Positions 6,531-63,962 of a DNA stretch of 64,000 bases are shown here, one piece after another. Both the position numbers and the translations under genes were made by a program. Positions within the stretch are counted from its first letter, which is position 1, and every line of letters begins with the position of its first letter. Origin of the DNA: Candidatus Nomurabacteria bacterium RIFCSPLOWO2_01_FULL_39_18 (GTDB taxonomy: Bacteria > Patescibacteriota > Minisyncoccia > Phycocordibacterales > UBA9973). Location: contig MFUV01000004.1 in the NCBI GenBank assembly GCA_001787005.1, positions 911-64,910 on the forward strand. The letters run 5' to 3'. The notes beneath the pieces were generated by a model that was not told the origin of the DNA, did no database searches, and saw only the letters and a list, made by a program, of their open reading frames with translations.

Positions 6531-6860
6531 GGGGTAGGTGTTGGATAGCTACTCTATAATGTAAGTTGTAGAGAGGAAAGTCCGAACACAGTTTACCCCG
6601 TATTTATGCGGGGCGAAAAATGAGTAGTGGGTAACGCCCGCATGTAGTGATGCATAGTTGCGAACAGTGACGAACCGATTTAGTTCGGGTGAAACGGCTA
6701 AATACTTACTTCTGTGCAAGATCGTGTCCAGCCCCACTTTTAATAAAGTGGGGCTGGGAGAATCGCTTGAGCCCGAGAGTAATCGAGGGCCTAGACAAAT
6801 TGCTATCGTCCCCGACCTTGGTCGAGGACCACAGAATTCGGCTTATAGACACCTACAACA
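6531..6860 (+). ncRNA. rnpB: RNase P RNA, bacterial type
   Basis: The P4 strands are present: AGAGGAAAGUCCGAACAC at 6572-6589 and ACAGAAUUCGGCUUAUAG at 6831-6848. P1 pairs gtaggtgt (6534-6541) with acacctac (6849-6856). A promoter lies upstream and a terminator downstream. Confidence 0.85.
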
Positions 6861-6871
6861 AAAATGAGAGT

Positions 6872-10978: not shown

Positions 10979-11269
10979 CTAAACCCATGCCACTTTTTTA
11001 AACACTTGCACTGACTGTATCTTTCTAATTTGTAAAACAATTCTGAAAACTTTATTCGACTTTCTGGCGACATTTCGTTCCGACCAGACTTTCATCTCCA
11101 CGAAGTTTGCCTTTTCTCTATTTTTTACTTTCACAAAATCCTTTTCTATGCGTTTCATTAGTCTAGTTAGTCTTCCCATGAATTCTTTATTTTTGAGTGC
11201 ATTTTTATTATTGCCAACTTTTACAATAACCATCTCACCCAGATATTTTTTTAAGTTATTTGCTTTCAT
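10979..11269 (-). CDS. Hypothetical basic protein
   Basis: 96-aa ORF directly after the argH stop. It is not the missing argH C-terminal domain. Confidence 0.25.
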   Translation of the reverse strand: MKANNLKKYLGEMVIVKVGNNKNALKNKEFMGRLTRLMKRIEKDFVKVKNREKANFVEMKVWSERNVARKSNKVFRIVLQIRKIQSVQVFKKVAWV

Positions 11270-11290: not shown

Positions 11291-12469
11291 TTACCCATAT
11301 TTTTTTGAGACTTCTCGATATGCTTCTCGGAAAGACATTCCTTTTTCAACTAAGTTATAAACTTCAGCCGTAGCGTAGAGTTCTGAAGTTAATCCATTTT
11401 CACATTTCTTTTGATTAACTTTTAGATTCTTAAAGATTTCAGCCAACATGTATAAACTTTCTGAAACAATTTCAAAGGTTTTAAATACTGGCTCTTTAAG
11501 TAACTGCAAATCTCTGTGATAGCCTGATATTAAATTACTAGTAATACCCTTTACCCGTAACTCGCAAGAGACTACTGTATGATATTTTGCTCTCAGTAAT
11601 TCCAACACATCAGGATTTTTCTTTTGTGGCATTATCGAACTGCCTGTGCGAAATTCCTTGGGTAATTCAAAGTAACCAAATTCCGACATGCTGAACATAA
11701 TTAAGTCCGATGATATTTTATTGGCATCAAACATAATTTGAGCAAGGGCATGCAAAATCGCCGATTCAAACTTACCACGACTGTTTTGCGCATAAATTGG
11801 ATTTTGTTGAACTTTTTTGAAACCTAAAATTTTTGCGGTAAAGTTTCTTTCAATTCTTATAGGCAAGCCGTATCCAGCCGCAGTTCCGAGTGGAGACTGA
11901 TCTATTAAGTCCTCTGCGTAAGCCAAAGATTTTAAATTATCTTGCATGGAATCTATAAAACTTTCTGCCAACATTTTTATTGATGAAGGCATAGCTTTGC
12001 GAGTATGCGTGTAGCCAGGAAATTTAATTTTTCCATAAAGCTTGGAAAAATTTCGCAAGCTACTAATAAATTTCTCACACAACTCATTACAAATCTTTAA
12101 GTTATCTTTGTAATATAATCTCAAAGCAACCAGAACTTGATCATTGCGAGAACGAGCAGTGTGAATTTTCTCTCCCAATATTCCCAACTTTTTAGTAAGA
12201 TAATTTTCTATGGCTGTATGACAGTCTTCTTGTTCGGGTAAGATTTTGAACTTACCTTTTGCGTCTAAACTAATAATTTCTTGTAAGGATTTAGATAGCT
12301 TTTTCACCTCTGTACTTTTGAGTAGTCCGATTTTCCCCAGCATTTGGGCATGAGCCGTGGAAGCCAAACAGTCATACTTGACCAGTTGTTGGTCAAGAAT
12401 ATAATCTTGTCCCACCGTAAATTTCTCTACATCTTTATTTAATTTGTAATTTTTTTGCCAGAGTTTCAT
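11291..12469 (-). CDS. argH: Argininosuccinate lyase, apparently lacking ~60 C-terminal residues
   Basis: Fumarate-lyase signature GSSIMPQKKNPD and an ArgH-like N-terminus. At 392 aa it is ~65 aa shorter than typical, ending shortly after FREAYREV. Its start overlaps the argG stop. Confidence 0.8.
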   Translation of the reverse strand: MKLWQKNYKLNKDVEKFTVGQDYILDQQLVKYDCLASTAHAQMLGKIGLLKSTEVKKLSKSLQEIISLDAKGKFKILPEQEDCHTAIENYLTKKLGILGEKIHTARSRNDQVLVALRLYYKDNLKICNELCEKFISSLRNFSKLYGKIKFPGYTHTRKAMPSSIKMLAESFIDSMQDNLKSLAYAEDLIDQSPLGTAAGYGLPIRIERNFTAKILGFKKVQQNPIYAQNSRGKFESAILHALAQIMFDANKISSDLIMFSMSEFGYFELPKEFRTGSSIMPQKKNPDVLELLRAKYHTVVSCELRVKGITSNLISGYHRDLQLLKEPVFKTFEIVSESLYMLAEIFKNLKVNQKKCENGLTSELYATAEVYNLVEKGMSFREAYREVSKKYG

Positions 12470-13734
12470 TTTTTATCTTTTTTATTTTTAACTGATAATT
12501 GATTTGCTAGTTTCATCTGTAAAGAGTAAATTTCAATAAATCCTGCACTTGCATTTACATTGAGTCCATACCCCTCTGTGTTATTAAATGAAGCATGGTC
12601 TAAGGCGTACGGAGACTGTACTGTGATGACAGTGGTGTTACCTTTGAATAATCTAATTTGTACTTTTCCTGTGACTTTTTGATTAATGAAATCATTAAAA
12701 TGATTTATTGATTGCATCGCTGGGTCATACCACTGAGCTCCATAGCATAAGTAGCCCCACTTTATGTCAGAAATTTCCTTGAGTTCATTCTGCACTCTTG
12801 TGCAAACATATTTTTCTAAATTCTTATGCGCTTCAATAATTACGTGTGCCGCAGGATGTTCATAAACACCACGATTTTTCAAACCAACAATTCTATCTTC
12901 AAGTAAGTAAACAGTTCCAACTCCGTGCTTCCCCGCTAATTTATTTAGTTTAACTATCAGCTTTGCTAATGACATTTTTGTGCCGTTTAAAGCCACAGGT
13001 AGACCTTGGTTAAAATCTAGAGTTACTATTCCTGGTTCGTCTGGTGCATTTTTGGGTAAAGTATAAGTGGTCAAAAACTTTTCTTCCGGCACTATTTGGG
13101 TTGGATTTGTAATTTCCCCGCCTTCCCAAGTAATGCCCCACATGTTGTCATCGTCGCTGTAAGGAAAATCTAGAGAAGCAGGAATAGGAATATTATTTTT
13201 TTGAGCGTATTTTATTTCTGCATTTCTGTCCATGTTCCACTCTCGAACTGGCGCAAGAATTTTTATTTTTGGTTCCAAAGCTACAACATAACCTTCAATT
13301 CTAACTTGGTCATTACCCTTACCCGTGCAACCGTGAGCAATACAATCAGCGTTTTCTTTTTTAGCTATTTCTACCGCCTTCTTTGCTAATATGGCCCTAC
13401 CGATTGGTGTAGAAAGATGATAGTTACCTTGATAACAAGCATTGGCTTTAATTCCATAAGAAATATATTCTTTAGCAAATTCTTCTCTCACATCTAAAGC
13501 GATAGCTTTTATTGCTCCGAACTTTAAAGCTTTTTGTCTAATTGCTTATAAGTCATCGTGTTGCTGACCTAAGTTTAGAGTTAAAGCAATAACTTGAACT
13601 TTATATTGATCCTGAATCCACTTAAGCATCACCGAAGTATCTAAACCTCCGGAATACAAAAGTAAAACTTTTTTTATCTCCCCTTTTTGCGCTTCATAAG
13701 AAGCGACTTTTATGTAAGATGTTTTTTTATTCAT
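12466..13734 (-). pseudogene. argG: Argininosuccinate synthase interrupted by a single in-frame TAA
   Basis: The 62-aa ORF 13546..13734 ([14 protein letters not shown]...LGQQHDDL) and the 341-aa ORF 12466..13491 are in the same frame. Reading through gives ...QQHDDL*AIRQKALKFGAIKAIALDVREEF..., which is contiguous ArgG sequence. The stop is the rc of tta at 13546-13548. Confidence 0.75.
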
Positions 13735-13785
13735 ATTTTTTATTTATTAGTTAATAATTTAGAAGAACTAAAAATCTAATGGGTA

Positions 13786-14000
13786 CGAAAAAAGCTCCGT
13801 CCCCGGGGAAAACGTAAAGTTTCCCTCAAGGACGGAGCTTGTAAAAGTCCGTGGTACCACCCTGGTTCCATCTCAACAATCAAAATGAGATGACACTTGA
13901 TCCGAGACTAACATCCCGGTGTCTAATTTTACGGTTAGACTTCCGTAAGGCATTTTTGCCTTCAGCTGGCAGGACGCGACTCTCGCTCGTAACGCTTTAT
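13786..14000 (-). promoter_or_regulatory. T-box-like leader with an intrinsic terminator upstream of argG
   Basis: On the minus strand, AACCAGGGUGGUACCACGGAC (plus 13847-13869) matches the T-box consensus AGGGUGGNACCGCG. It is followed by a 10-bp-stem hairpin AGCUCCGUCC...GGACGGAGCU plus U6 (plus 13786-13839). TTGACA sits at plus 14047-14052. Confidence 0.55.
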
Positions 14001-14082
14001 AAGGTAATATTTAATTGTGAGAAAAGTTTAACAAAATCAAGGTTCTTGTCAACTGTGGATAACTATGGCTTGATTTTCATTT

Positions 14083-14099
14083 GTACATTTTGTACAATA
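14083..14099. promoter_or_regulatory. Palindromic candidate operator overlapping the -10 of the phd-mazF module
   Basis: Sequence TTGTACAttttGTACAAT. Confidence 0.35.
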
Positions 14100-14104
14100 C
14101 ACCT

Positions 14105-14362
14105 ATGAACATAAAAACACTTTCAACAACACAGGCCAGAAAAGATATGAGCGATTTGATAAACATTGTCTCTATAAGTCGCAAATCAATTGTCATCGGA
14201 CGCAGGAATGTTCCGGAAGTAGTTCTGATCCCCTTCCCGGCATTTTGGAATGGCAAACTTTCTGAGATAACCAACATGAATACATACTCTAAAAGTTTTG
14301 ATTTTCTTAAAGACGAACCGGAAATTTATTCTGTAAAAGATATAAAAAAGAGATATGCATAA
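14105..14362 (+). CDS. Phd/YefM-family antitoxin
   Basis: Segment MNIKTLSTTQARKDMSDLINIVSISRKSIVIGRRNVPEVVLIPF. The 3' end overlaps the toxin gene. Confidence 0.7.
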   Translation: MNIKTLSTTQARKDMSDLINIVSISRKSIVIGRRNVPEVVLIPFPAFWNGKLSEITNMNTYSKSFDFLKDEPEIYSVKDIKKRYA

Positions 14363-14696
14363 AATAGGAGATATCGTACTGACGCCTTTCCCTTTTACCG
14401 ACCTTTCTGGTAATAAAGTTCGCCCGGCTCTTGTGCTCGGAGTACAAGACGGAGGCGATGATGTAACTGTTTGCTTTATTTCTTCTAATGAGCAAAACAA
14501 AATTCATAAGTTTGATATTCTGATTGACTTTAAAGATAAAAGCTTCAAAAAGACAGGGCTTAAGTTAAAATCAATTATTAAAGTAGTAAAAATAGCTACT
14601 CTAGATAAAGTGGTGATTCTAGGAAAAATTGGAGAGCTGGATACTTCAAATATGCGAAGGGTAAAAAATGTTTTGAAAGTTTATTTTGGATTGTAG
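14355..14696 (+). CDS. PemK/MazF-family toxin
   Basis: Segment GDIVLTPFPFTDLSGNKVRPALVLGV. Confidence 0.75.
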   Translation: MHKIGDIVLTPFPFTDLSGNKVRPALVLGVQDGGDDVTVCFISSNEQNKIHKFDILIDFKDKSFKKTGLKLKSIIKVVKIATLDKVVILGKIGELDTSNMRRVKNVLKVYFGL

Positions 14697-15952
14697 TTTT
14701 TTAAAAACTCCTCCTTAAATTCAAAAAAGTTATCATCTAAGATCGACTGCCTGATTTTTTTCACCAAATTAATAATGAAATATAAATTGTGCGTAGTGGC
14801 GAGGGTGGCGGCTAGCATTTCCTTGCCGTGAAAAAGATGGCAGAGATAAGCGCGAGTAAAACCCCCTGTTGTCCCCCTTGTCAGGGGGACAGGGCCCTCC
14901 TCCCCTGATAAGGGGAGGTCTCGGGAGGGGTTGTTGCACACATAGCACCCACAACCATCCTCAATCGGTTGGAAATCCCCCCGGTACTGGGCATTGGTGA
15001 TATTTATTTTTCCATTCTTGGTATATAGCGTTCCGTTTCTCCCATTGCGTGTCGGCGCGACGCAATCAAAAAGATCCACTCCATTTTCCACCCCCATAAA
15101 CAAATCCTCCGGTTCTCCGATGCCGAGCAAGTGCCGGGGCTTATCTTCTGGCAAAATTTCGTTCACCAGCCTGGTTGTCAGCTCCATGTGTTCCTTGGTA
15201 TAAGAGCCACCAATGCCAAATCCATCAAAAGGCAGACTGGAAATATATTCCGCGGATTTTTTGCGCGAATCTTTTTCCAGGCCGCCCTGCACAATGCCAA
15301 ACAGGGCTTGGGTATCTTTGTTTGGTTTGGATTGGTGATACTCTAGTGAACGCTTCGCCCAAGCATGGGTGCGAGAAAGAGCTTCGTTTTGATATTCATA
15401 ACTTTCATGCGGAGACGTAGCTTCATCAAAAGCAAAGATAATATCCGCGCCCAGGTTGTGCTGGATTTCCATAGATTTCTCCGGAGTGATGTAGTGAAGC
15501 GTTCCGTCTATATGTGAACGAAACGAGACACCGTCATTGCCGATATTGGCAAGCCGAGGCGCGCCATCTTCTGCGCTAGACCGCTCTGGAATTTGAATGG
15601 CAGGTTCGGTTCCTCTAATGACTTTCGAAAAGTCTTTTCCATAAGCCGCACCGAGAGAAAAAACTTGAAAGCCGCCAGAGTCGGTAATGATCGGACCCTC
15701 CCAATTCATAAACTTGTGGAGTCCACCGGCACGAGCCACTAATTCGTCTCCCGGCTGGAGGTAGAGATGGTAAGTGTTGGCAAGCACTACCTCTGCCCCT
15801 AATTCCGCCACCTGTAGGGGCGTGAGCGCCTTAACAGAGGCCTTGGTGGCAACAGGCACAAAGGTCGGAGTATGAATCTCCCCATGCGAGGTTTTCAAAA
15901 CCCCCGCCCTTCCTAAACTATTTTCTAATTTTTTTTCTATCTTGAAATGCAT
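14681..15952 (-). CDS. tgt: Queuine tRNA-ribosyltransferase with a ~21-aa in-frame insertion
   Basis: Motifs DCVAPTRNGRNG, LGIGEPEDL and the zinc site CGCYVCNN...TRAYLCHL. The extra peptide PSRDLPLSGEEGPVPLTRGTTGGF lies between the zinc site and TRAYL. It is encoded by the GC-rich palindromic element at 14861-14932. Confidence 0.9.
   Translation of the reverse strand: MHFKIEKKLENSLGRAGVLKTSHGEIHTPTFVPVATKASVKALTPLQVAELGAEVVLANTYHLYLQPGDELVARAGGLHKFMNWEGPIITDSGGFQVFSLGAAYGKDFSKVIRGTEPAIQIPERSSAEDGAPRLANIGNDGVSFRSHIDGTLHYITPEKSMEIQHNLGADIIFAFDEATSPHESYEYQNEALSRTHAWAKRSLEYHQSKPNKDTQALFGIVQGGLEKDSRKKSAEYISSLPFDGFGIGGSYTKEHMELTTRLVNEILPEDKPRHLLGIGEPEDLFMGVENGVDLFDCVAPTRNGRNGTLYTKNGKINITNAQYRGDFQPIEDGCGCYVCNNPSRDLPLSGEEGPVPLTRGTTGGFTRAYLCHLFHGKEMLAATLATTHNLYFIINLVKKIRQSILDDNFFEFKEEFLKNYNPK
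14861..14932. repeat. GC-rich palindromic element (RPE-like), copy A, in-frame inside tgt
   Basis: Tandem hairpins gtccccc-ttgtca-gggggac and cctcccc-tgataa-ggggagg in an AT-rich gene. Related copies lie at 42357-42449, 53106-53172 and 60176-60212. Confidence 0.5.
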
Positions 15953-16896: not shown

Positions 16897-17923
16897 CTTG
16901 ATTCCCGATTAAAACTTCATGGTAAGATGCCATATCATCGAGTATTATTCCCGTCCCGCGAGCCACAGCTGAAAGCGGATCTTCCACCACATGCACTCTA
17001 ATCTTGAGAACACTTTGCAGGAGCTGGTCGAGCCCAGAGATTAGGGCGCCGCCGCCAGAGAGCGTGATGCCTCTATGCATAATATCCGATAAAATCTCGG
17101 GCGGGGTCGTCTCAAGCATGTCTCTGACTCCTCCCACTAATTCTTTTATCGACAACATCATGGCTTCGCGAATATCAGAATCTGTCACCACAACTTCGCG
17201 GGGTAGTCCAGTAAGAATATCGCGCCCATGAACTTCAGTTTCCATATACTCTCCTGGAATGACAGAGCCGATAGCGATTTTTACCATTTCGGCTGTTCTT
17301 TCACCGACAAGAATCTTAAATTCATCGCGCATATAAGAAATAATATCGTTGTTTAATCTATCGCCTGCTATTTTTAAATTTTTTGATTTTACAATTCCGC
17401 CGAGAGATATAACTGCGATGTCTGTTGTCCCGCCACCAATATCTATGATCATCGACCCAACAGGGTCTTTTATAGGAAGTCTGATGCCGATAGCCGCGGC
17501 CATGGGTTCTTCTACCAAGAAAACTTCTCTAGCTCCAGCCGAGCGCGCCGCATCATACACAGCGCGGGTCTCGACATTGGTGGTACCAGATGGCACACCG
17601 ATCAGAACTCTCGGTCGCGCTAACTTTTTAGACATTTTATCTGCTTTGTTTATGAGGTATGAAAGCATCTCTTCGGTAACTTCGAAATCTGAAATAACGC
17701 CATCAACCAGTGGGCGCACAGCTTTGATGTGTCCCGGAGTGCGACCCAGCATTTCTTTCGCTTTCGTACCCACAGCCAGGATTTGACTGGTTTTCATATT
17801 AACAGCCACGACTGAAGGTTCGTTGATGACGATCCCGTGACCCTTTAAATATACTAAGGTATTCGAAGTGCCTAGGTCTATGCCTATATCATTCGAAATT
17901 AATTTATAAATCTTTTCAAACAT
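16877..17923 (-). CDS. mreB: Rod shape-determining protein MreB
   Basis: Segment IGIDLGTSNTLVY and the actin-like fold motifs. Confidence 0.95.
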   Translation of the reverse strand: MFEKIYKLISNDIGIDLGTSNTLVYLKGHGIVINEPSVVAVNMKTSQILAVGTKAKEMLGRTPGHIKAVRPLVDGVISDFEVTEEMLSYLINKADKMSKKLARPRVLIGVPSGTTNVETRAVYDAARSAGAREVFLVEEPMAAAIGIRLPIKDPVGSMIIDIGGGTTDIAVISLGGIVKSKNLKIAGDRLNNDIISYMRDEFKILVGERTAEMVKIAIGSVIPGEYMETEVHGRDILTGLPREVVVTDSDIREAMMLSIKELVGGVRDMLETTPPEILSDIMHRGITLSGGGALISGLDQLLQSVLKIRVHVVEDPLSAVARGTGIILDDMASYHEVLIGNQDELPPR

Positions 17924-17967
17924 AATTTTCCAGATAGAGCTTTAGACTCTAGATAGAGTCTAAAGCT

Positions 17968-19215
17968 CTATCTGGTTAGTATTTTTAATAATTCTTCCAG
18001 AGAAACAATTTTCCCTTTTTCTTCTGTGCGCTTTTTCAATTCAATTCCGCCTTCCTTTATACTTCGAGAAGATACAACTGCTCGATAGGGTATGCCAAGC
18101 AAGTCCGCATCGGCAAATTTCTCTCCTGGAGATATTTCTCCCCGATCGTCAAATAAAACCTCAATTTTATTCCTCTTTAAACTTTCATAGACTTTATCGG
18201 CTTCTTTTTCAATCTCTGTATCATCTCCTAGGGCAAGCAGATGGACAGCGAATGGCGCTATGGATTCGGGCCAGATAATGCCCTTATCGTCAGCAAGAAC
18301 CTCTACCACGGTGCCTAAAAGACGCCCCACGCCTATGCCATAACAACCCATCAAAACAATGTGTTTTTCGCCCTTTTCATCCACATATGACAAATCAAAT
18401 GGCTTTGAATATTTTGTTTTTAAATCAAAAATGTTTCCAACTTCAATGGCCTTTTGTTCAATTAGTTTTTCTTTTACTAAACCAAGCTGATTTAGAATTT
18501 CGTCGTTGAAAACTTCTTTATTAAGGGCAGTACCGCTAGCCTCATCAATATAAATAGTATCCTCGCCTAGGGGCGTGATGGTCTGGAATTCATGCGAATA
18601 TTTAGAGAAAGTTCCACCCGAAGCGAAAGCCATGTAAGTCAAATGGCCAATACCGACTCTGGCAAAGATAGTTTTGTAAACTTCTTTCATTTTATTATAG
18701 AATTTTTCGAAATCGTCTTTTGATGTGTGGAAGGAATACATGTCTTTCATGACAAATTCCCTACCCCGAAGTATTCCGGATTTTGCGCGAAGTTCCATTC
18801 TAAATTTATTTTGAATTTGATAAATGGAGAGGGGGAAATCTTTGTGGGAAGAAACATAATTTTTCAAAATAGGAACAACGATCTCCTCGTGAGTAGGACC
18901 CAAGGCAACAACTCTTCCGGAAGAATCAGTAACTTTGTATAAATCATCCATCGATTCCCATCTTCCAGTTTTTTCCCAATTTTCTTTCGGCTGGAAAGAA
19001 GACATTAAAACTTCTTGTCCGCCGACAGCGTTCATTTCTTCCCGAATGATATTTTCTATTTTTCGAAGCGTCCGGAGCCCTAAGGGCAAATAACTATAAA
19101 CCCCTGCCATTTCCTTATGAATAAAACCACCACGAATCAGGAGCTCGGCATTTTTTGATACTTCGTCTGCTGGCGCCTCGCGCCTCGTCTTAGTAAAAAG
19201 TTTTGATTGTCTCAT
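17968..19215 (-). CDS. proS: Prolyl-tRNA synthetase, compact form lacking the INS editing domain
   Basis: N-terminus MRQSKLF...YSYLPLGLRTLRKIENIIREEMNAVGGQEVLM is a class-II ProRS pattern. 415 aa. Confidence 0.85.
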   Translation of the reverse strand: MRQSKLFTKTRREAPADEVSKNAELLIRGGFIHKEMAGVYSYLPLGLRTLRKIENIIREEMNAVGGQEVLMSSFQPKENWEKTGRWESMDDLYKVTDSSGRVVALGPTHEEIVVPILKNYVSSHKDFPLSIYQIQNKFRMELRAKSGILRGREFVMKDMYSFHTSKDDFEKFYNKMKEVYKTIFARVGIGHLTYMAFASGGTFSKYSHEFQTITPLGEDTIYIDEASGTALNKEVFNDEILNQLGLVKEKLIEQKAIEVGNIFDLKTKYSKPFDLSYVDEKGEKHIVLMGCYGIGVGRLLGTVVEVLADDKGIIWPESIAPFAVHLLALGDDTEIEKEADKVYESLKRNKIEVLFDDRGEISPGEKFADADLLGIPYRAVVSSRSIKEGGIELKKRTEEKGKIVSLEELLKILTR

Positions 19216-49259: not shown

Positions 49260-51395
49260 TTACTTCGCAATCTGGGTTGCTTCTTCAAATTTAATGGAGA
49301 GGAGTTTGGAGGCGCCGTTACTGCCCACTGTTACGCCATAGAGTATGTCGGCGCGGGACATCGTTTCGCGATTGTGGGTAACGACGATAAGCTGGGAATG
49401 TTTTGAAAGTTTCTCTAGCATGTCTCCGTATTTGCGTGAATTCGCCTCATCGAGTGCAGCGTCTGTCTCGTCGAGCACTAAGAAGGGCGGCGGGTTAACC
49501 TGTGACATGGCAAAGAGTAGCGCGATGGATGTGAGCGACCTCTCTCCGCCCGAGAGCGCATGAAGTTCTTTGACCTTTTTGTGCGGAAGTGAAACATTAA
49601 TTTCTATCCCTTGCTCGGGGGCGGTCTCTTCTTCATTTTCTATTTCCACTTCCTCTTCGTCTAAATCAGATGGAGCGTTTCTCTTCCTCTTATTTTCCAC
49701 AACAATCTTCAGGGACCCGTGTCCCCCGCCAAACATTAGGGTAAAAAATTCTTGAAACTCCACATTTATTTTCTTGATGCCTTCTTGGAATTCCATGTCA
49801 ATCTTTTCTTTTAAATCCAATATAAGCTTCTGTAGCAAATCAATGCTTTTAGTTAAATCCTCCATCTCTTTCGCCAAAAACCCGTCTCTCTCTGAAACTT
49901 CTTTAAATTCTTTCATAACTTCCGCTCCACTGCCGAGGCCTGCATCCTCTAGTTTTATTTTTAACCGTTCAATCTTTTTCCTCAATTCTTCCTGAACACT
50001 CTCTTCGCCCCCATTTTCTATCTTGTGATTTTTATATGACAAAATTTCTTCCCCCACAAGCGCAATGCCCTCTTTTATCTCTCGTTCAAAAGCTTCATTT
50101 CTGCTTCGTAAATTTCCTTCTTTAATGTTTATGAGTTCTAGCTGGGAAGTTAGTTCTTGGTGCTTAACTTTCCAAGTAAATTTCTCTCGTTCAAGATCAC
50201 GCAGAGTTTCCATTTCTTTATCAATCGCTTGTTTTAAGCTTTCTGCCGATTCTGCTCCCCTCACCTCTTCCACTTCTAGATTTTTCATCCCGGCGACAAC
50301 TTCCTGTTGTGAGTTTTTTAATTCTTCTAATTCCTTCTCTCCCTGTTGTCGCTTTTCTATTTGCTCCGGGTGCATCTCTTTGATTTCATTACCACAAAGC
50401 GGACATCTGCCAGAAAGTTTTACCTTATTTTCTTTTGATTCTAGCATCCCCTCTATTCGTCCGAGTTTTCTTTCCATTTCATTTTTGAGCGCGCGAATTT
50501 CGTTGATCTTTTTCTCAATAGCTCGAAGCTCTTCTATTTTTCGATTGCCTCCCCTAGAATTTTCATCTTCAGTGAGAGAAATTTTTTTGGCAACACTGGC
50601 AAGCTCGACAGAAATTTTATTTTTCTCTTTTGTTAAATTAGACTTTTCTTTTTCTAGGTAAACACTTTCTTTCTTCAAATATTCACGATAAAGCCCTGCG
50701 AGCTCTGCCTGCATTTCCTTGGCCTTTTCAAATTTCTCTACTTGTTTCTTAAGAAAATTAAGATGCGGAGCATTCTCTCGGCGAAGCATCGTCACCTCTT
50801 TCATATTTTCTTCTGTGCGTTCGAGCTTCCTTTCAGATTCTTTTATCTTGTATTGATAAATTTTGAGCCCCAATGCGTCTTCCACCATCTCGCGTCTTTC
50901 TTTCATATTTGCATTCAAAATTCTGTCCGCCTCGCCCTGCGAAATGATGTGGTGCCCAGAAGAGCCAATGTTGACTGAAGCCAGGAGATTGTGAATATCT
51001 TTCAGCCTGACTTCTCCCCCATTTAAACTATATTTATTGAGTCCATCTGGAAAAACCTCGCGAGAAATGCTGATGGTGTCGTAATTCAAGTTTACATTTT
51101 CTCCTTCACTATTTGAAAGTTTGAAAACTTTGTCAGAATTATTGAAATAAATTTTAACTATTGCATGGTTTCCCTTGGGCAAACTCTTTGATCCCTTGAA
51201 AATTAAATCCGAGCCAGTTTTGCCCCGCATCGACTTCATCGACTGCTCACCTAGGACATAGCGTATTGCCTCTACTACATTTGATTTCCCGGAGCCATTT
51301 GGCCCCACAATAGAAACTATGGGATTATTGAACTCTAAAAGACTTTTCTGGTGGAAAGATTTAAAGCCGTTTATTTCCAGGGTTTTCAGTCGCAT
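49260..51395 (-). CDS. smc: Miniaturised SMC-family ATPase with a Rad50-type CxxC hook in place of a hinge
   Basis: N-terminal Walker A GPNGSGKSN with an SMC_N-like sequence. C-terminal LSGGERSL and PFLVLDETDAALD. A central RCPLCGNEI lies within predicted coiled coil. Only 711 aa. Positioned directly after rnc, matching the common rnc-smc synteny. Confidence 0.75.
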   Translation of the reverse strand: MRLKTLEINGFKSFHQKSLLEFNNPIVSIVGPNGSGKSNVVEAIRYVLGEQSMKSMRGKTGSDLIFKGSKSLPKGNHAIVKIYFNNSDKVFKLSNSEGENVNLNYDTISISREVFPDGLNKYSLNGGEVRLKDIHNLLASVNIGSSGHHIISQGEADRILNANMKERREMVEDALGLKIYQYKIKESERKLERTEENMKEVTMLRRENAPHLNFLKKQVEKFEKAKEMQAELAGLYREYLKKESVYLEKEKSNLTKEKNKISVELASVAKKISLTEDENSRGGNRKIEELRAIEKKINEIRALKNEMERKLGRIEGMLESKENKVKLSGRCPLCGNEIKEMHPEQIEKRQQGEKELEELKNSQQEVVAGMKNLEVEEVRGAESAESLKQAIDKEMETLRDLEREKFTWKVKHQELTSQLELINIKEGNLRSRNEAFEREIKEGIALVGEEILSYKNHKIENGGEESVQEELRKKIERLKIKLEDAGLGSGAEVMKEFKEVSERDGFLAKEMEDLTKSIDLLQKLILDLKEKIDMEFQEGIKKINVEFQEFFTLMFGGGHGSLKIVVENKRKRNAPSDLDEEEVEIENEEETAPEQGIEINVSLPHKKVKELHALSGGERSLTSIALLFAMSQVNPPPFLVLDETDAALDEANSRKYGDMLEKLSKHSQLIVVTHNRETMSRADILYGVTVGSNGASKLLSIKFEEATQIAK

Positions 51396-62671: not shown

Positions 62672-63160
62672 TTATTTTTTGAAATTATAACCCCTCGCAA
62701 GTTTAAAGGTTTTTAAATCTTCTCTCAAGCCGATACTTTTAATGTAATCCAAAAATTCTTTCGGTAGGGGTGAAGGACCCACCCAAACACTTTTCTGTAT
62801 CATGGCATAATTAAATTTCTTGAGATGCCAGCGCAACCATTCCCTTTCCGCTTTCTTTGGTTCTGGAACATCAAACATAACTATCAGGTTCTTTGGCGCA
62901 TCTTTGTCGAATTGAAAATCAAATTGTTGCAGAGAGTCAATTTTTCTTTTAATATAATTTATACCTTTCGGGGTAATGTACAGTCCGTCGCAATCCCCCA
63001 CAAGTTTTTCTTTTATGAGATGCGACATAGTTCCCCGCAATGAGCTCTGCGAATAATTTTTAAATCTTGGTAAACCCAAAAGGTTTACCCGACTTCCTTT
63101 ATAGTTGAGCGACACGCTACTAAGCTCTTTTAGAATGTCGTATATAATACTCATGCACAA
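62672..63160 (-). CDS. Winged-HTH + PaaX_C-like protein, paralogue P3
   Basis: Segment NLIVMFDVPEPKKAEREWLRWHLKKFNYAMIQKSVWVGPSPLP. Confidence 0.45.
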   Translation of the reverse strand: MCMSIIYDILKELSSVSLNYKGSRVNLLGLPRFKNYSQSSLRGTMSHLIKEKLVGDCDGLYITPKGINYIKRKIDSLQQFDFQFDKDAPKNLIVMFDVPEPKKAEREWLRWHLKKFNYAMIQKSVWVGPSPLPKEFLDYIKSIGLREDLKTFKLARGYNFKK

Positions 63161-63235: not shown

Positions 63236-63682
63236 TCAGGGATTTTTATTTTGAGTCTTGGAAAAAATTATTAAAGTTTTTTCAAAATTGTCTGGAACAT
63301 CTACTATTTCATAAGAAAAACCATCTGGTAGTACAAACTTTCCATCGTTAATGAATTTTTCTACTGTTGCTTTATCAACTTCAGTTGATAGTAGAATTTT
63401 GCCGTTCTCTTTTAATAACTTCTGACAGATCTTAAATGTATCTGGGTTAATTATAAGTTCTTCACTTAAACAAAACATTGTTATTAAATCCGACATTTCT
63501 TCACCTTCTAGTTTAGTAAAATCAACCTCAAGAATAGCGGGAGATTCATTGAAATCTATTTCTTGTATACTTTTAAGAGGGACCCCCTCTTTTTTGAATA
63601 AATCTAGTGCTTGTTGATTTTTGATAGAAACTTTCTCAATACCAAGCCATTTTGCAATACTCGCAAACAGTCGCTTTGCCAT
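63236..63682 (-). CDS. Hypothetical protein
   Basis: 148-aa ORF with no recognised motif. Confidence 0.3.
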   Translation of the reverse strand: MAKRLFASIAKWLGIEKVSIKNQQALDLFKKEGVPLKSIQEIDFNESPAILEVDFTKLEGEEMSDLITMFCLSEELIINPDTFKICQKLLKENGKILLSTEVDKATVEKFINDGKFVLPDGFSYEIVDVPDNFEKTLIIFSKTQNKNP

Positions 63683-63962
63683 AGGAATTATAATTGCAAG
63701 GCCTATTAACCCATTCGCCCGTTTTAACTAAGTGGTCATAATCTGCAATGTCTTTCAGTAGTAACTCAATTTCCCCCTTCGTTATTATCCTATCGTAAAA
63801 AATTTCTTTTTTATTCTTTGCCTCCAGAAATTCCAGCCGGCTCTTTCTTACATCCGCTTTAGAAGTATTTTGAAGCAAATATGAATACATCGCCAGCTGT
63901 CGTAAGTATGAGCTCATTCTTCCTTCCTCGTCAAGCTTCTCTATTTCGCCTTTTTTCTTCAC
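63636..63962 (-). CDS. Hypothetical protein with a C-terminal Cys pair, possibly N-terminally truncated
   Basis: 108-aa ORF near the window edge. Confidence 0.25.
   Translation of the reverse strand: MKKKGEIEKLDEEGRMSSYLRQLAMYSYLLQNTSKADVRKSRLEFLEAKNKKEIFYDRIITKGEIELLLKDIADYDHLVKTGEWVNRPCNYNSYGKATVCEYCKMAWY

Follow-up and report, generated by a model that had tools for sequence, protein, structure and literature searches.

A probable recent nonsense pseudogene of argG in the argG-argH operon of a groundwater Patescibacteria population

The argG gene of the window (the whole 64-kb stretch of DNA analysed here) is interrupted by a single in-frame TAA. It belongs to an argG-argH operon under T-box control and is most likely a pseudogene that arose by a recent nonsense mutation; at best, it is an allele with severely impaired function. 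Judged from homologs and from contigs of the same population, it is very probably a recent loss-of-function allele in one groundwater population of Microgenomates-type Patescibacteria. Recent pseudogenisation, one of the readings offered by the original prediction, is the best supported of them: (i) the close relatives have GAA at the position of the stop; (ii) the TAA allele recurs; and (iii) the genetic code is standard. The locus contains the following features, in the direction of transcription:

14025..14052, minus strand: promoter-like site, TTGACA-16 nt-TG-n-TAAACT, with 10/12 matches and a TG before the -10 hexamer
13788..14001, minus strand: T-box-like leader, from an Rfam RF00230 match and the homologous leaders of relatives
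13751..13780, minus strand: argF remnant, the last ~10 codons and the stop, from alignments to the related loci L006 and L007
13735..13750, minus strand: argF-argG spacer, after the argF remnant
13549..13734, minus strand: argG codons 1–62, covering strand 1, the ATP-binding YSGGLDTS motif, helix 1, and strand 2, to GQQHDDL
13546..13548, minus strand: premature TAA at argG codon 63, GAA (Glu) to TAA by one G>T; the next base is G
12466..13545, minus strand: argG codons 64–422 and the TGA stop, open and colinear with intact ArgG
11291..12469, minus strand: argH, argininosuccinate lyase, 392 aa, from Lyase_1, TIGR00838, homolog lengths, and a structure model

On the minus strand (13734..12466), the argG frame starts at the ATG at 13734 and runs for 62 codons to ...GQQHDDL, where it meets its only in-frame TAA (13548..13546); it then continues for 359 codons, from AIRQKALKFGA... 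to the TGA at 12468..12466, and both flanks of the stop are colinear with intact ArgG. Only 341 aa are listed for the downstream open reading frame because the ORF lister restarts at the GTG at 13491. The product joined across the stop matched both ArgG domains, namely Arginosuc_synth (PF00764; residues 22–183 on profile positions 1–162 of 162, E 9.5e-63) and Arginosuc_syn_C (PF20979; residues 192–409 on positions 1–218 of 219, E 6.3e-59), which bears out the earlier claim that one TAA splits argG. The joined translation thus has the N-terminal nucleotide-binding domain with the SGGLDTS ATP motif and the C-terminal synthase domain. The TAA lies inside the first domain; therefore, the 2 ORFs are one interrupted gene rather than a chance pair. 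An intact ortholog (P0001), which passes TIGR00032 and NF001770, is 93% identical to the joined product along its whole length. Compared with canonical ArgG (PF00764 and PF20979; TIGR00032; 6xnq, 1j1z, and 1vl2), both domains are colinear and the 11-letter motif is present, whereas an uninterrupted frame of ~400 aa is lacking, the window frame being broken at codon 63.

A comparison with sister genomes, as had been proposed for this stop, revealed codon by codon that position 63 is GAA (Glu) in the closest relatives L006 and L007, the former having 85% nucleotide identity to the window locus. Glu is also found at this position in P0001, P0002, P0003, and P0005–P0008. All 119 full-length homologs have a residue here, in agreement with the original prediction: E occurs in 96 of the 119 and K, D, Q, or A in the rest, without a single gap in the column. 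According to these alignments, the argG stop is the product of a single G>T substitution, GAA to TAA, at a place where the sense codon of orthologs is one mutational step from TAA. The gene is uninterrupted at 78 of 80 related species loci, the exceptions being L088 (a TGA) and L099 (an N-run), and a split ArgG of the window kind was found neither among the 120 best homologs nor at these 80 loci.

The TAA could be a sequencing or assembly error in an argG that is really intact, an explanation the original prediction had also considered. G>T changes are familiar library-preparation artefacts caused by oxidative DNA damage, and a close allele from a protein-level assembly (P0125), ~97% identical, has Glu at codon 63. 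This allele, however, differs at about a dozen further residues and is therefore a sister strain or a chimera. The same base recurs in independent data: an identical TAA allele is present in L001–L004 and L010–L019, and at least 24 contigs (ENA, JGI, and Logan) encode the 62-aa argG product; they come from no fewer than 5 BioSamples and were built by several assemblers (ggKbase-type, JGI, MEGAHIT, and Logan assemblies). The samples include BioSamples SAMN03842430, 31, 35, 39, and 40 and JGI 3300002502; the “fixed” allele is that of one population, and all samples may share one aquifer system. Exact revertants of the present background, in which codon 63 would encode E, K, Q, Y, S, or L, were absent from a collection of ~15 billion proteins. 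An error is thus highly improbable. To count TAA and GAA alleles, metagenome_contigs and genome_contigs were scanned with a degenerate 38-nt pattern spanning the stop (N at the first stop base), with 0 matches in either. The pattern is valid because the window, L001–L004, and L006 all matched it; the zero counts simply reflect collections without the present lineage.

The TAA-bearing contigs are essentially clonal. Most of the differences among them lie at contig ends or in patches resembling a co-occurring sister strain, a pattern suggestive of chimeric assembly or recombination. Population polymorphism after the stop was dropped as a signal of decay for this reason. In one variant (L016), argG carries the TAA and has also lost the 13 bp at 13423..13435, flanked by TATC repeats, with a shift of the frame; the variant is a single 1.6-kb contig, and the deletion could be an assembly artefact.

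As judged from the substitution pattern, the lesion is young, with open frames and conserved sequence kept in the rest of argG and in argH. Nonsynonymous and synonymous changes number 12 and 37 in argG on the window branch and 9 and 43 on that of L006 (p = 0.46); in argH, they number 10 and 31 on the window branch and 16 and 25 on that of L006 (p = 0.24). At columns conserved at ≥97%, the argG and argH products show 2 deviations each, which is inside the family range. The relative-rate test and the conserved columns therefore gave no signal of relaxed selection in the consensus argG and argH, the stop aside, and the absence of an excess of damaging changes indicates a young mutation. The relative-rate result fits a young pseudogene and a still functional gene alike. 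The leader, promoter, terminator, 359 downstream codons, and argH have all been kept intact.

UGA is reassigned to Gly in Gracilibacteria and Absconditabacteria, relatives within the Patescibacteria, and by analogy a reassigned stop codon or a dedicated suppressor tRNA might let the TAA of argG encode an amino acid. To our knowledge, however, UGA is the only stop reassigned in that group, and we know of no bacterial recoding system for UAA. TAA ends 35 of 50 window ORFs (TAG 8, TGA 7), at positions consistent with homologs. Other genes of the window were checked for in-frame TAA, as had been advised: among the window genes examined through same-frame ORF pairs, argG alone of the conserved genes has an in-frame stop. 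The other same-frame pairs across one stop proved to be separate genes (RNase III, then SMC) or antisense to real genes. The window encodes only tRNA-Ala(UGC) and tRNA-Thr(UGU), with no suppressor tRNA, and the argG stop, followed by G, has no known recoding context. The locus resembles programmed recoding (selenocysteine UGA, pyrrolysine UAG, and code 25 UGA=Gly) in having an in-frame stop where homologs have an amino acid; it differs in that UAA is here the main terminator of the organism and that no other gene shows the phenomenon. The probability of reassignment or of a dedicated suppressor is close to negligible, and neither recoding nor readthrough, both raised by the original prediction, was borne out.

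A weaker form of function deserves separate weighing, in which the allele still works at a low level through occasional TAA readthrough or as a two-piece protein, with a 62-aa ATP-loop peptide and a C-terminal protein restarted at or near GTG codon 82, a restart that would also keep argH translated. The alignment to 6xnq places the TAA outside the secondary-structure elements, with strand 2 and the GQ motif before it and helix 2 after it; the whole downstream part is an open, conserved frame; and TAA-G is rare, at only 1 of the 35 genuine TAA stops in the window. No obvious Shine-Dalgarno sequence precedes argG or argH, so restarts here need little signal. The open downstream sequence is, however, equally well explained by a young lesion, a restart at codon 82 drops residues 64–81 in addition to the ATP loop, and UAA is the least leaky stop codon in bacteria, with readthrough typically at 1e-4 or less. 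The lack of a comparable split ArgG in the 120 best homologs and 80 related loci, and the further frameshift in one variant, also speak against residual function, which we regard as unlikely. Should the split argG be retained and working, by UAA readthrough that depends on context or as two naturally separate ArgG pieces, the sole assembled allele and the intact downstream sequence would both be explained, but we consider this quite improbable.

The operon has a real second lesion, which the original prediction had missed, namely the deletion of argF (ornithine carbamoyltransferase). Beyond the terminal remnant, the missing ~0.9 kb was removed as a clean deletion between the T-box leader and argG, and a tblastn search of the whole window found nothing similar to OTCase. 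The gene is present in L006, L020, L022, and L007–L009, and the nearest intact relatives have the order argF-argG-argH. Among 80 related species, more than half have argH or argG without argF within 3 kb. As argF-less argG and argH are this common, the deletion weakens as evidence of decay and is by itself no proof of it.

The leader and promoter, which the original prediction had called apparently intact, stand up to comparison with relatives: the leader is homologous to those before argF in L006, L020, and L007, compensatory pairs occur in the terminator and in Stem III across 4 leaders, and TTGACA also stands at the equivalent position before the L006 and L007 leaders. RF00230 matched at 13825..14001 (minus strand), the only T-box match in the window, with 41 bits against a gathering score of 93 (E 8.7e-8 locally and 1.2e-5 for the whole window); it goes unreported at the Rfam gathering threshold and appears in E-value mode only. 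The T-box core AACCAGGGUGGUACCACGG (13867..13849) aligned to the RF00230 model and is accompanied by a mutually exclusive terminator, a strong hairpin with a U-run at ~13839..13788; the leader folds with an energy of -87.7 kcal/mol (z = -5.55). A putative specifier CGC (Arg; 13978..13976) lies within a conserved AGUCGCG (13981..13975), only about 37 nt from the predicted start site. A long Stem I with its distal platform is absent, 90 Stem I model positions being replaced by 24 nt. From these features, the leader looks like a T-box with an ultrashort Stem I presenting a CGC (Arg) codon, and it looks transcriptional because it ends in an intrinsic terminator.

The review PMC7583486, citing Sherwood et al. 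2015, describes an ultrashort Stem I class among actinobacterial ileS leaders; it assigns ultrashort Stems I typically to translational T-boxes and states that transcriptional ones require the distal platform. The present leader shares with the ultrashort class (i) the conserved T-box sequence, Stem III, and a Stem II-like region; and (ii) a short Stem I without the distal platform for the tRNA elbow, with CGC (Arg) in a small loop. It differs in its intrinsic terminator and in its score, which stays below the Rfam gathering threshold. Putative T-box leaders of the arginine type, with an ultrashort Stem I, precede arg operons in Patescibacteria.

The start of argH overlaps the argG stop (ATGA), and its 392-aa product ends in ...FREAYREVSKKYG. 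The original prediction had read this early end as loss of the C-terminal domain. The length measurement holds: ArgH is ~60–75 aa shorter than characterised or solved ASL enzymes, and its end corresponds to about residue 392–397 of solved ASL/delta-crystallin chains (447–474 aa). C-terminal loss as decay does not hold, since nearly all of the 120 closest homologs are equally short. These best 120 homologs, from several phyla, are 347–404 aa long (388–404 aa in 116 of them), and the FREAY..KKY motif forms the end of all 16 homologs checked, as in the window argH. The product matched Lyase_1 (PF00206; E 9.8e-45) and scored 282.1 bits on TIGR00838 (cutoff 279.5; profile positions 10–386 of 455), and the signature loop GSSxMPxKxNP is present as TGSSIMPQKKNPD. 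A complete ASL_C2 domain (PF14698) is missing; residues 366–388 weakly match profile positions 4–26 of 69 (E 0.053). Structural comparison of the model (pLDDT 83) with canonical ASL/delta-crystallin (TIGR00838; 1hy1, 2e9f, 1tj7, and 9ggi) revealed the same fold over ~385 residues, with a TM of 0.88 to solved ASL structures and the GSSIMPQKKNP loop, except that the last 60–75 residues are lacking. The shortening is common to the whole ~390-aa ArgH clade and is therefore not a lesion: by homolog comparison, argH is undamaged, and 392 aa is the native, conserved short form of its enzyme clade.

A second TAA event splitting argH, with the same-frame 96-aa ORF at 11269..10979 (after the stop at 11293..11291) as the lost C-terminus, was rejected. 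This ORF has no similarity to ASL_C2, Pfam, NCBIfam, or PHROG entries, the ArgH of relatives ends at the same place, and a same-frame neighbour is expected by chance in 1 of 3 cases. A ~390-aa argininosuccinate lyase without the end of domain 3 is widespread, the short homologs spanning Patescibacteria, Thermoplasmata, Dehalococcoidia, and Aerophobetes.

The comparisons point to the following course. A T-box-controlled argF-argG-argH operon was ancestral; argF was then cleanly deleted, fusing the leader to argG, and a single G>T transversion turned Glu-63 (GAA) of argG into TAA. Translation would end after 62 residues, yielding a peptide with the ATP-binding loop and nothing else of the enzyme, and any protein restarted further downstream, as at GTG codon 82, would lack the nucleotide-binding motif. 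Because the argH start lies inside the argG stop, translational coupling would probably be lost too, and argH may suffer transcriptional polarity. With argG translation cut at 62 residues, the citrulline-to-arginine route would most likely be off, and arginine would be taken from the surroundings or a host. The nonsense pseudogenes of reduced or host-dependent genomes, such as Mycobacterium leprae and recent insect symbionts, are similar in combining a lone premature stop in an otherwise conserved biosynthetic gene with loss of a neighbour gene of the same pathway, in a small genome of limited biosynthesis. The present lesion differs from them in being very young, its consensus without further decay, and in belonging to an uncultured population, where loss of function is read from sequence.

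For annotation, argG should be treated as a pseudogene and argH should not be flagged as truncated, and citrulline-to-arginine synthesis should not be credited to this population. The leader and the short ArgH are of wider interest than the stop codon itself. The locus is a small, well-dated record of how an ultra-small groundwater bacterium loses a pathway: argF was deleted, argG then acquired a nonsense mutation, and argH and the leader stayed untouched. It involves no new principle, only ordinary gene inactivation, and it fits the view that such bacteria depend on external amino acids.

A single in-frame TAA at codon 63 interrupts argG within conserved sequence, as the original prediction held. 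The features of the operon are as follows:

14052..14025, reverse strand: promoter-like motif TTGACA-16-TGnTAAACT
13788..14001, reverse strand: full arg leader
13825..14001, reverse strand: T-box-like leader match (41 bits; E 8.7e-8 locally, 1.2e-5 over the whole window)
~13839..13788, reverse strand: predicted strong terminator hairpin with U-run
13780..13751, reverse strand: 30-nt argF remnant (last codons and stop) found by homology to relatives, followed by the argF-argG spacer
13734, reverse strand: ATG start of argG, opening a 62-codon frame
13548..13546, reverse strand: premature in-frame TAA, codon 63 of argG
to TGA at 12468..12466, reverse strand: argG frame past the stop, 359 codons (AIRQKALKFGA...), same frame
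12469..11291, reverse strand: argH, 392 aa, starting within the argG stop (ATGA) and ending in ...FREAYREVSKKYG
10979..11269, reverse strand: basic ORF of 96 aa, directly after argH and in the same frame

The joined argG translation matches the N-terminal domain PF00764 over its full length (1–162 of 162, E 9.5e-63) and the C-terminal domain PF20979 at 1–218 of 219 (E 6.3e-59). The TAA lies inside the first domain, and the two frames are therefore one interrupted gene. Among ArgG homologs, the best matches are full length (416–425 aa), come from Patescibacteria/Microgenomates-type genomes and read GQQHDDL-E-AI at the stop site. The codon-63 column is filled in all 119 full-length relatives aligned (E 96, K 7, D 6, Q 4, A 3; 0 gaps). 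Two intact relatives, L007 and L006 (the closest intact argG, 85% identical in nucleotides and 93% in amino acids), both have GAA at codon 63; on this comparison, one substitution turned a Glu codon into the stop.

A sequencing error had been considered as the source of the stop. The TAA is shared by the DNA of contigs L001–L004 and L010–L019, the 62-aa N-terminal ArgG product has exact matches on at least 24 contigs, and the ArgH protein has exact matches on 16. These contigs come from ENA, JGI (3300002502) and Logan, from BioSamples SAMN03842430, 31, 35, 39 and 40, and include several MEGAHIT re-assemblies. No exact revertant of this protein background (E, K, Q, Y, S or L at codon 63) was found in a collection of ~15 billion proteins; a sister allele with Glu (P0125, a protein-level assembly, ~97% identical) has about a dozen further differences. 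Because the same TAA recurs across contigs, BioSamples and assemblies and revertants are absent, an assembly or sequencing error is very unlikely. Judged from these contigs, the TAA is fixed in the sampled population, one groundwater Patescibacteria population. The contigs are essentially clonal in the arg region, with the remaining differences grouped at contig termini or in patches resembling a co-occurring sister strain. Several contig ends and one internal patch switch to that strain (L003:62-1300, L004:1-90, L005:1-35, L014, L015 and L017), corresponding to window positions ~17180–18380 and patches in 12860–13510, with mostly third-position differences. Such switches show that the samples hold mixed strains and that some assemblies are chimeric or recombinant.

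Readthrough or recoding, also raised originally, was not supported, because TAA ends 35 of the 50 long ORFs in the window (TAG 8, TGA 7) and argG alone is split. A survey of all sites in the window where a lone stop parts two open stretches, each of 50 codons or more, found no other split gene; the remaining long pairs were antisense to real genes or separate genes, such as RNase III followed by an SMC-like ATPase. This SMC_N-family ATPase (49260..51395, reverse strand) is only 711 aa long and shares the frame of RNase III, 15 nt past its TAG. The only tRNA genes within the window are tRNA-Ala and tRNA-Thr. The bacterial class A RNase P RNA (6533..6861, forward strand) barely passes the Rfam gathering score (102.2 versus 100), and in its alignment several helices are short or absent. 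Near the window end are a 162-aa ORF (62672..63160, reverse strand) with a PaaX_M/Cas2-like domain (E 2.6e-13 and 4.9e-5) and a weak PD-(D/E)XK nuclease match (63636..63962).

The start/stop overlap of argH with argG was confirmed, whereas the supposed loss of the ArgH C-terminal domain was not. The 120 best ArgH homologs (P0131–P0250) are 347–404 aa long, 116 of them 388–404 aa (commonest lengths 391 aa, n = 48; 392, n = 21; 403, n = 21), and sixteen checked across the list share the C-terminal end FREAY-x-x-[IV]-x-K-x-Y. The short form occurs in Patescibacteria (Gribaldobacteria, Sungiibacteria), one Thermoplasmata archaeon, Dehalococcoidia and Aerophobetes, at 65–89% identity. The window protein passes the argH equivalog cutoff (282.1 versus 279.5; profile positions 10–386 of 455), and its structure model (pLDDT 83, pTM 0.83) has a TM-score of 0.88 to argininosuccinate lyase (ASL) structures over ~385 columns. 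It aligns with solved ASL/delta-crystallins to about residue 392 of 447–474; unlike the short ArgH, all of these have the missing ~60–75 C-terminal residues. By homology and model, the window argH encodes a normal short-form enzyme, and the ~65-residue shortening is, across these homologs, a clade trait under strong conservation and no part of decay. The 96-aa ORF was rejected as a lost ArgH C-terminus, having no ASL C-terminal similarity, while the ArgH of relatives ends at the same residue. Pfam, NCBIfam and PHROGs gave no match for this ORF; every contig of the window strain carries it, but L007 and L008 lack it at this position.

The predicted T-box-like leader and promoter were borne out. 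The window leader and the related leaders listed here score 41–55 bits, below the Rfam T-box gathering score of 93. These related leaders are L006:330-545, L020:60-281, L007:4800-5085, L082:1361-1632, L086:128-399 and L089:2269-2540, and the four closest share a T-box core, Stem III, a Stem II-like region and a terminator, with compensatory changes. At least 20 leaders with the motif GGUGGUACC[GA]CG precede argH, argG or argF in related genomes. A conserved AGUCGCG lies only ~37 nt from the predicted start site, in the 6–8-nt loop of a 5–7-bp hairpin in L020, L007, L082, L086 and L089; we infer that CGC (an Arg codon, followed by a purine) is the putative specifier. The hairpin arms of the window leader match each other less closely, having one A–C mismatch, and CGC is sequestered in the minimum-energy fold. 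With its T-box core and intrinsic terminator, the leader resembles a transcriptional T-box whose Stem I is ultrashort. A review (PMC7583486) states that it is translational T-boxes that typically have an ultrashort Stem I and that transcriptional T-boxes require the distal platform; the arg leaders end in an intrinsic terminator. In the literature searched, no paper connects T-boxes to Patescibacteria or to the candidate phyla radiation. Between tgt and the leader (14081..14696, forward strand) lie a PhdYeFM-type antitoxin (~85–93 aa) and a PemK-type toxin (113 aa); L007–L009 have a ParE/YafQ-type toxin pair at the equivalent site upstream of the leader. Within tgt (14681..15952, reverse strand), a patch at 14840..14960 has 58–68% G+C (genome, 40%), adds a Gly/Pro-rich insert (...PSRDLPLSGEEGPVPLTRGTTGG...) to the encoded tRNA-guanine transglycosylase, and gives spurious ORFs in several frames.

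The operon carries a second lesion unseen in the original prediction, the loss of argF. The nearest intact relatives (L006, L020, L022 and L007–L009) have the order leader-argF-argG-argH, and the window leader is homologous to the one preceding their argF. This homology and the argF tail remnant indicate that ~0.9 kb of argF was cleanly deleted, and no OTCase-like sequence occurs elsewhere in the 64 kb. In more than half of 80 related species genomes, argH and argG occur with no argF inside 3 kb; therefore, this is a common stable state, and the argF deletion alone is no proof of decay. An argG-argH module would make arginine from citrulline. Among the related genomes (L025–L104), most have the order argH-argG, and their argF lies downstream or is missing from the surrounding 3 kb, differing from the argF-argG-argH of the closest relatives; argG and argH without argF are common in Patescibacteria and DPANN-type archaea. 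In the lineage of P0007 (L023:1221-5278, L024:1221-5278), argG follows a 509-aa Lyase_1 gene, which is called as two pieces in L023, and a DDAH-family gene, a possible citrulline source, lies alongside.

Contig L016 (1-1591, SAMN03842439) carries, besides the TAA, a 13-bp deletion at 13423..13435, between TATC direct repeats at argG codons 100–104, which shifts the frame. This one 1.6-kb contig suggests that argG is no longer protected by selection; the deletion either segregates in the population as a second lesion or is an assembly artefact. In the set of 80 related species loci, just one further argG is interrupted, by an in-frame TGA at codon 149 (RIEGY*LAI) in Saccharibacteria MAG HKST-UBA72 (L088:3001-4254), and that of L099 is broken only by an N-run. 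Such counts put sporadic argG disruption in these genomes at roughly the 1% level.

The argG lesion is, by its substitution pattern, young. With changes polarised by L007 as the outgroup, the window branch has 12 nonsynonymous (stop included) and 37 synonymous changes in argG versus 9 and 43 on the L006 branch (Fisher test, p = 0.46), and 10 and 31 in argH versus 16 and 25 (p = 0.24). At columns where 97% or more of the relatives agree, ArgG deviates twice (L151V and L315Q) and ArgH twice (W167L and D207E), within the family range. Given no rate excess, few such deviations and clonality, a very recent pseudogene and a still-used gene are inseparable by sequence alone.

The 62-residue peptide retains strand 1, the ATP loop, helix 1 and strand 2 (intact ortholog aligned to 6xnq). 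UAA followed by G would be an efficient terminator in bacteria, and the first in-frame canonical start past the stop is a GTG at codon 82, a possible restart whose product, lacking the ATP loop and residues 64–81, should therefore be inactive. Translation of argH is probably coupled to that of argG because argH begins in the argG stop codon, and polarity may arise from the ~1.1 kb of mRNA left untranslated. For these reasons, the citrulline-to-arginine route is most likely off. Beside the operon, the window also has genes for an arginine decarboxylase-type enzyme, an arginase-family protein and a deoxyhypusine-synthase-like protein, so arginine is still consumed and import would be needed. The recent pseudogenisation originally proposed is upheld in that we read argG as a recent nonsense pseudogene (GAA to TAA), or at best a severely crippled allele, in what appears to be a T-box-controlled operon that also lost argF. 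The argG stop is an ordinary phenomenon; the short ArgH clade and the arginine T-box leaders with ultrashort Stem I are more noteworthy.
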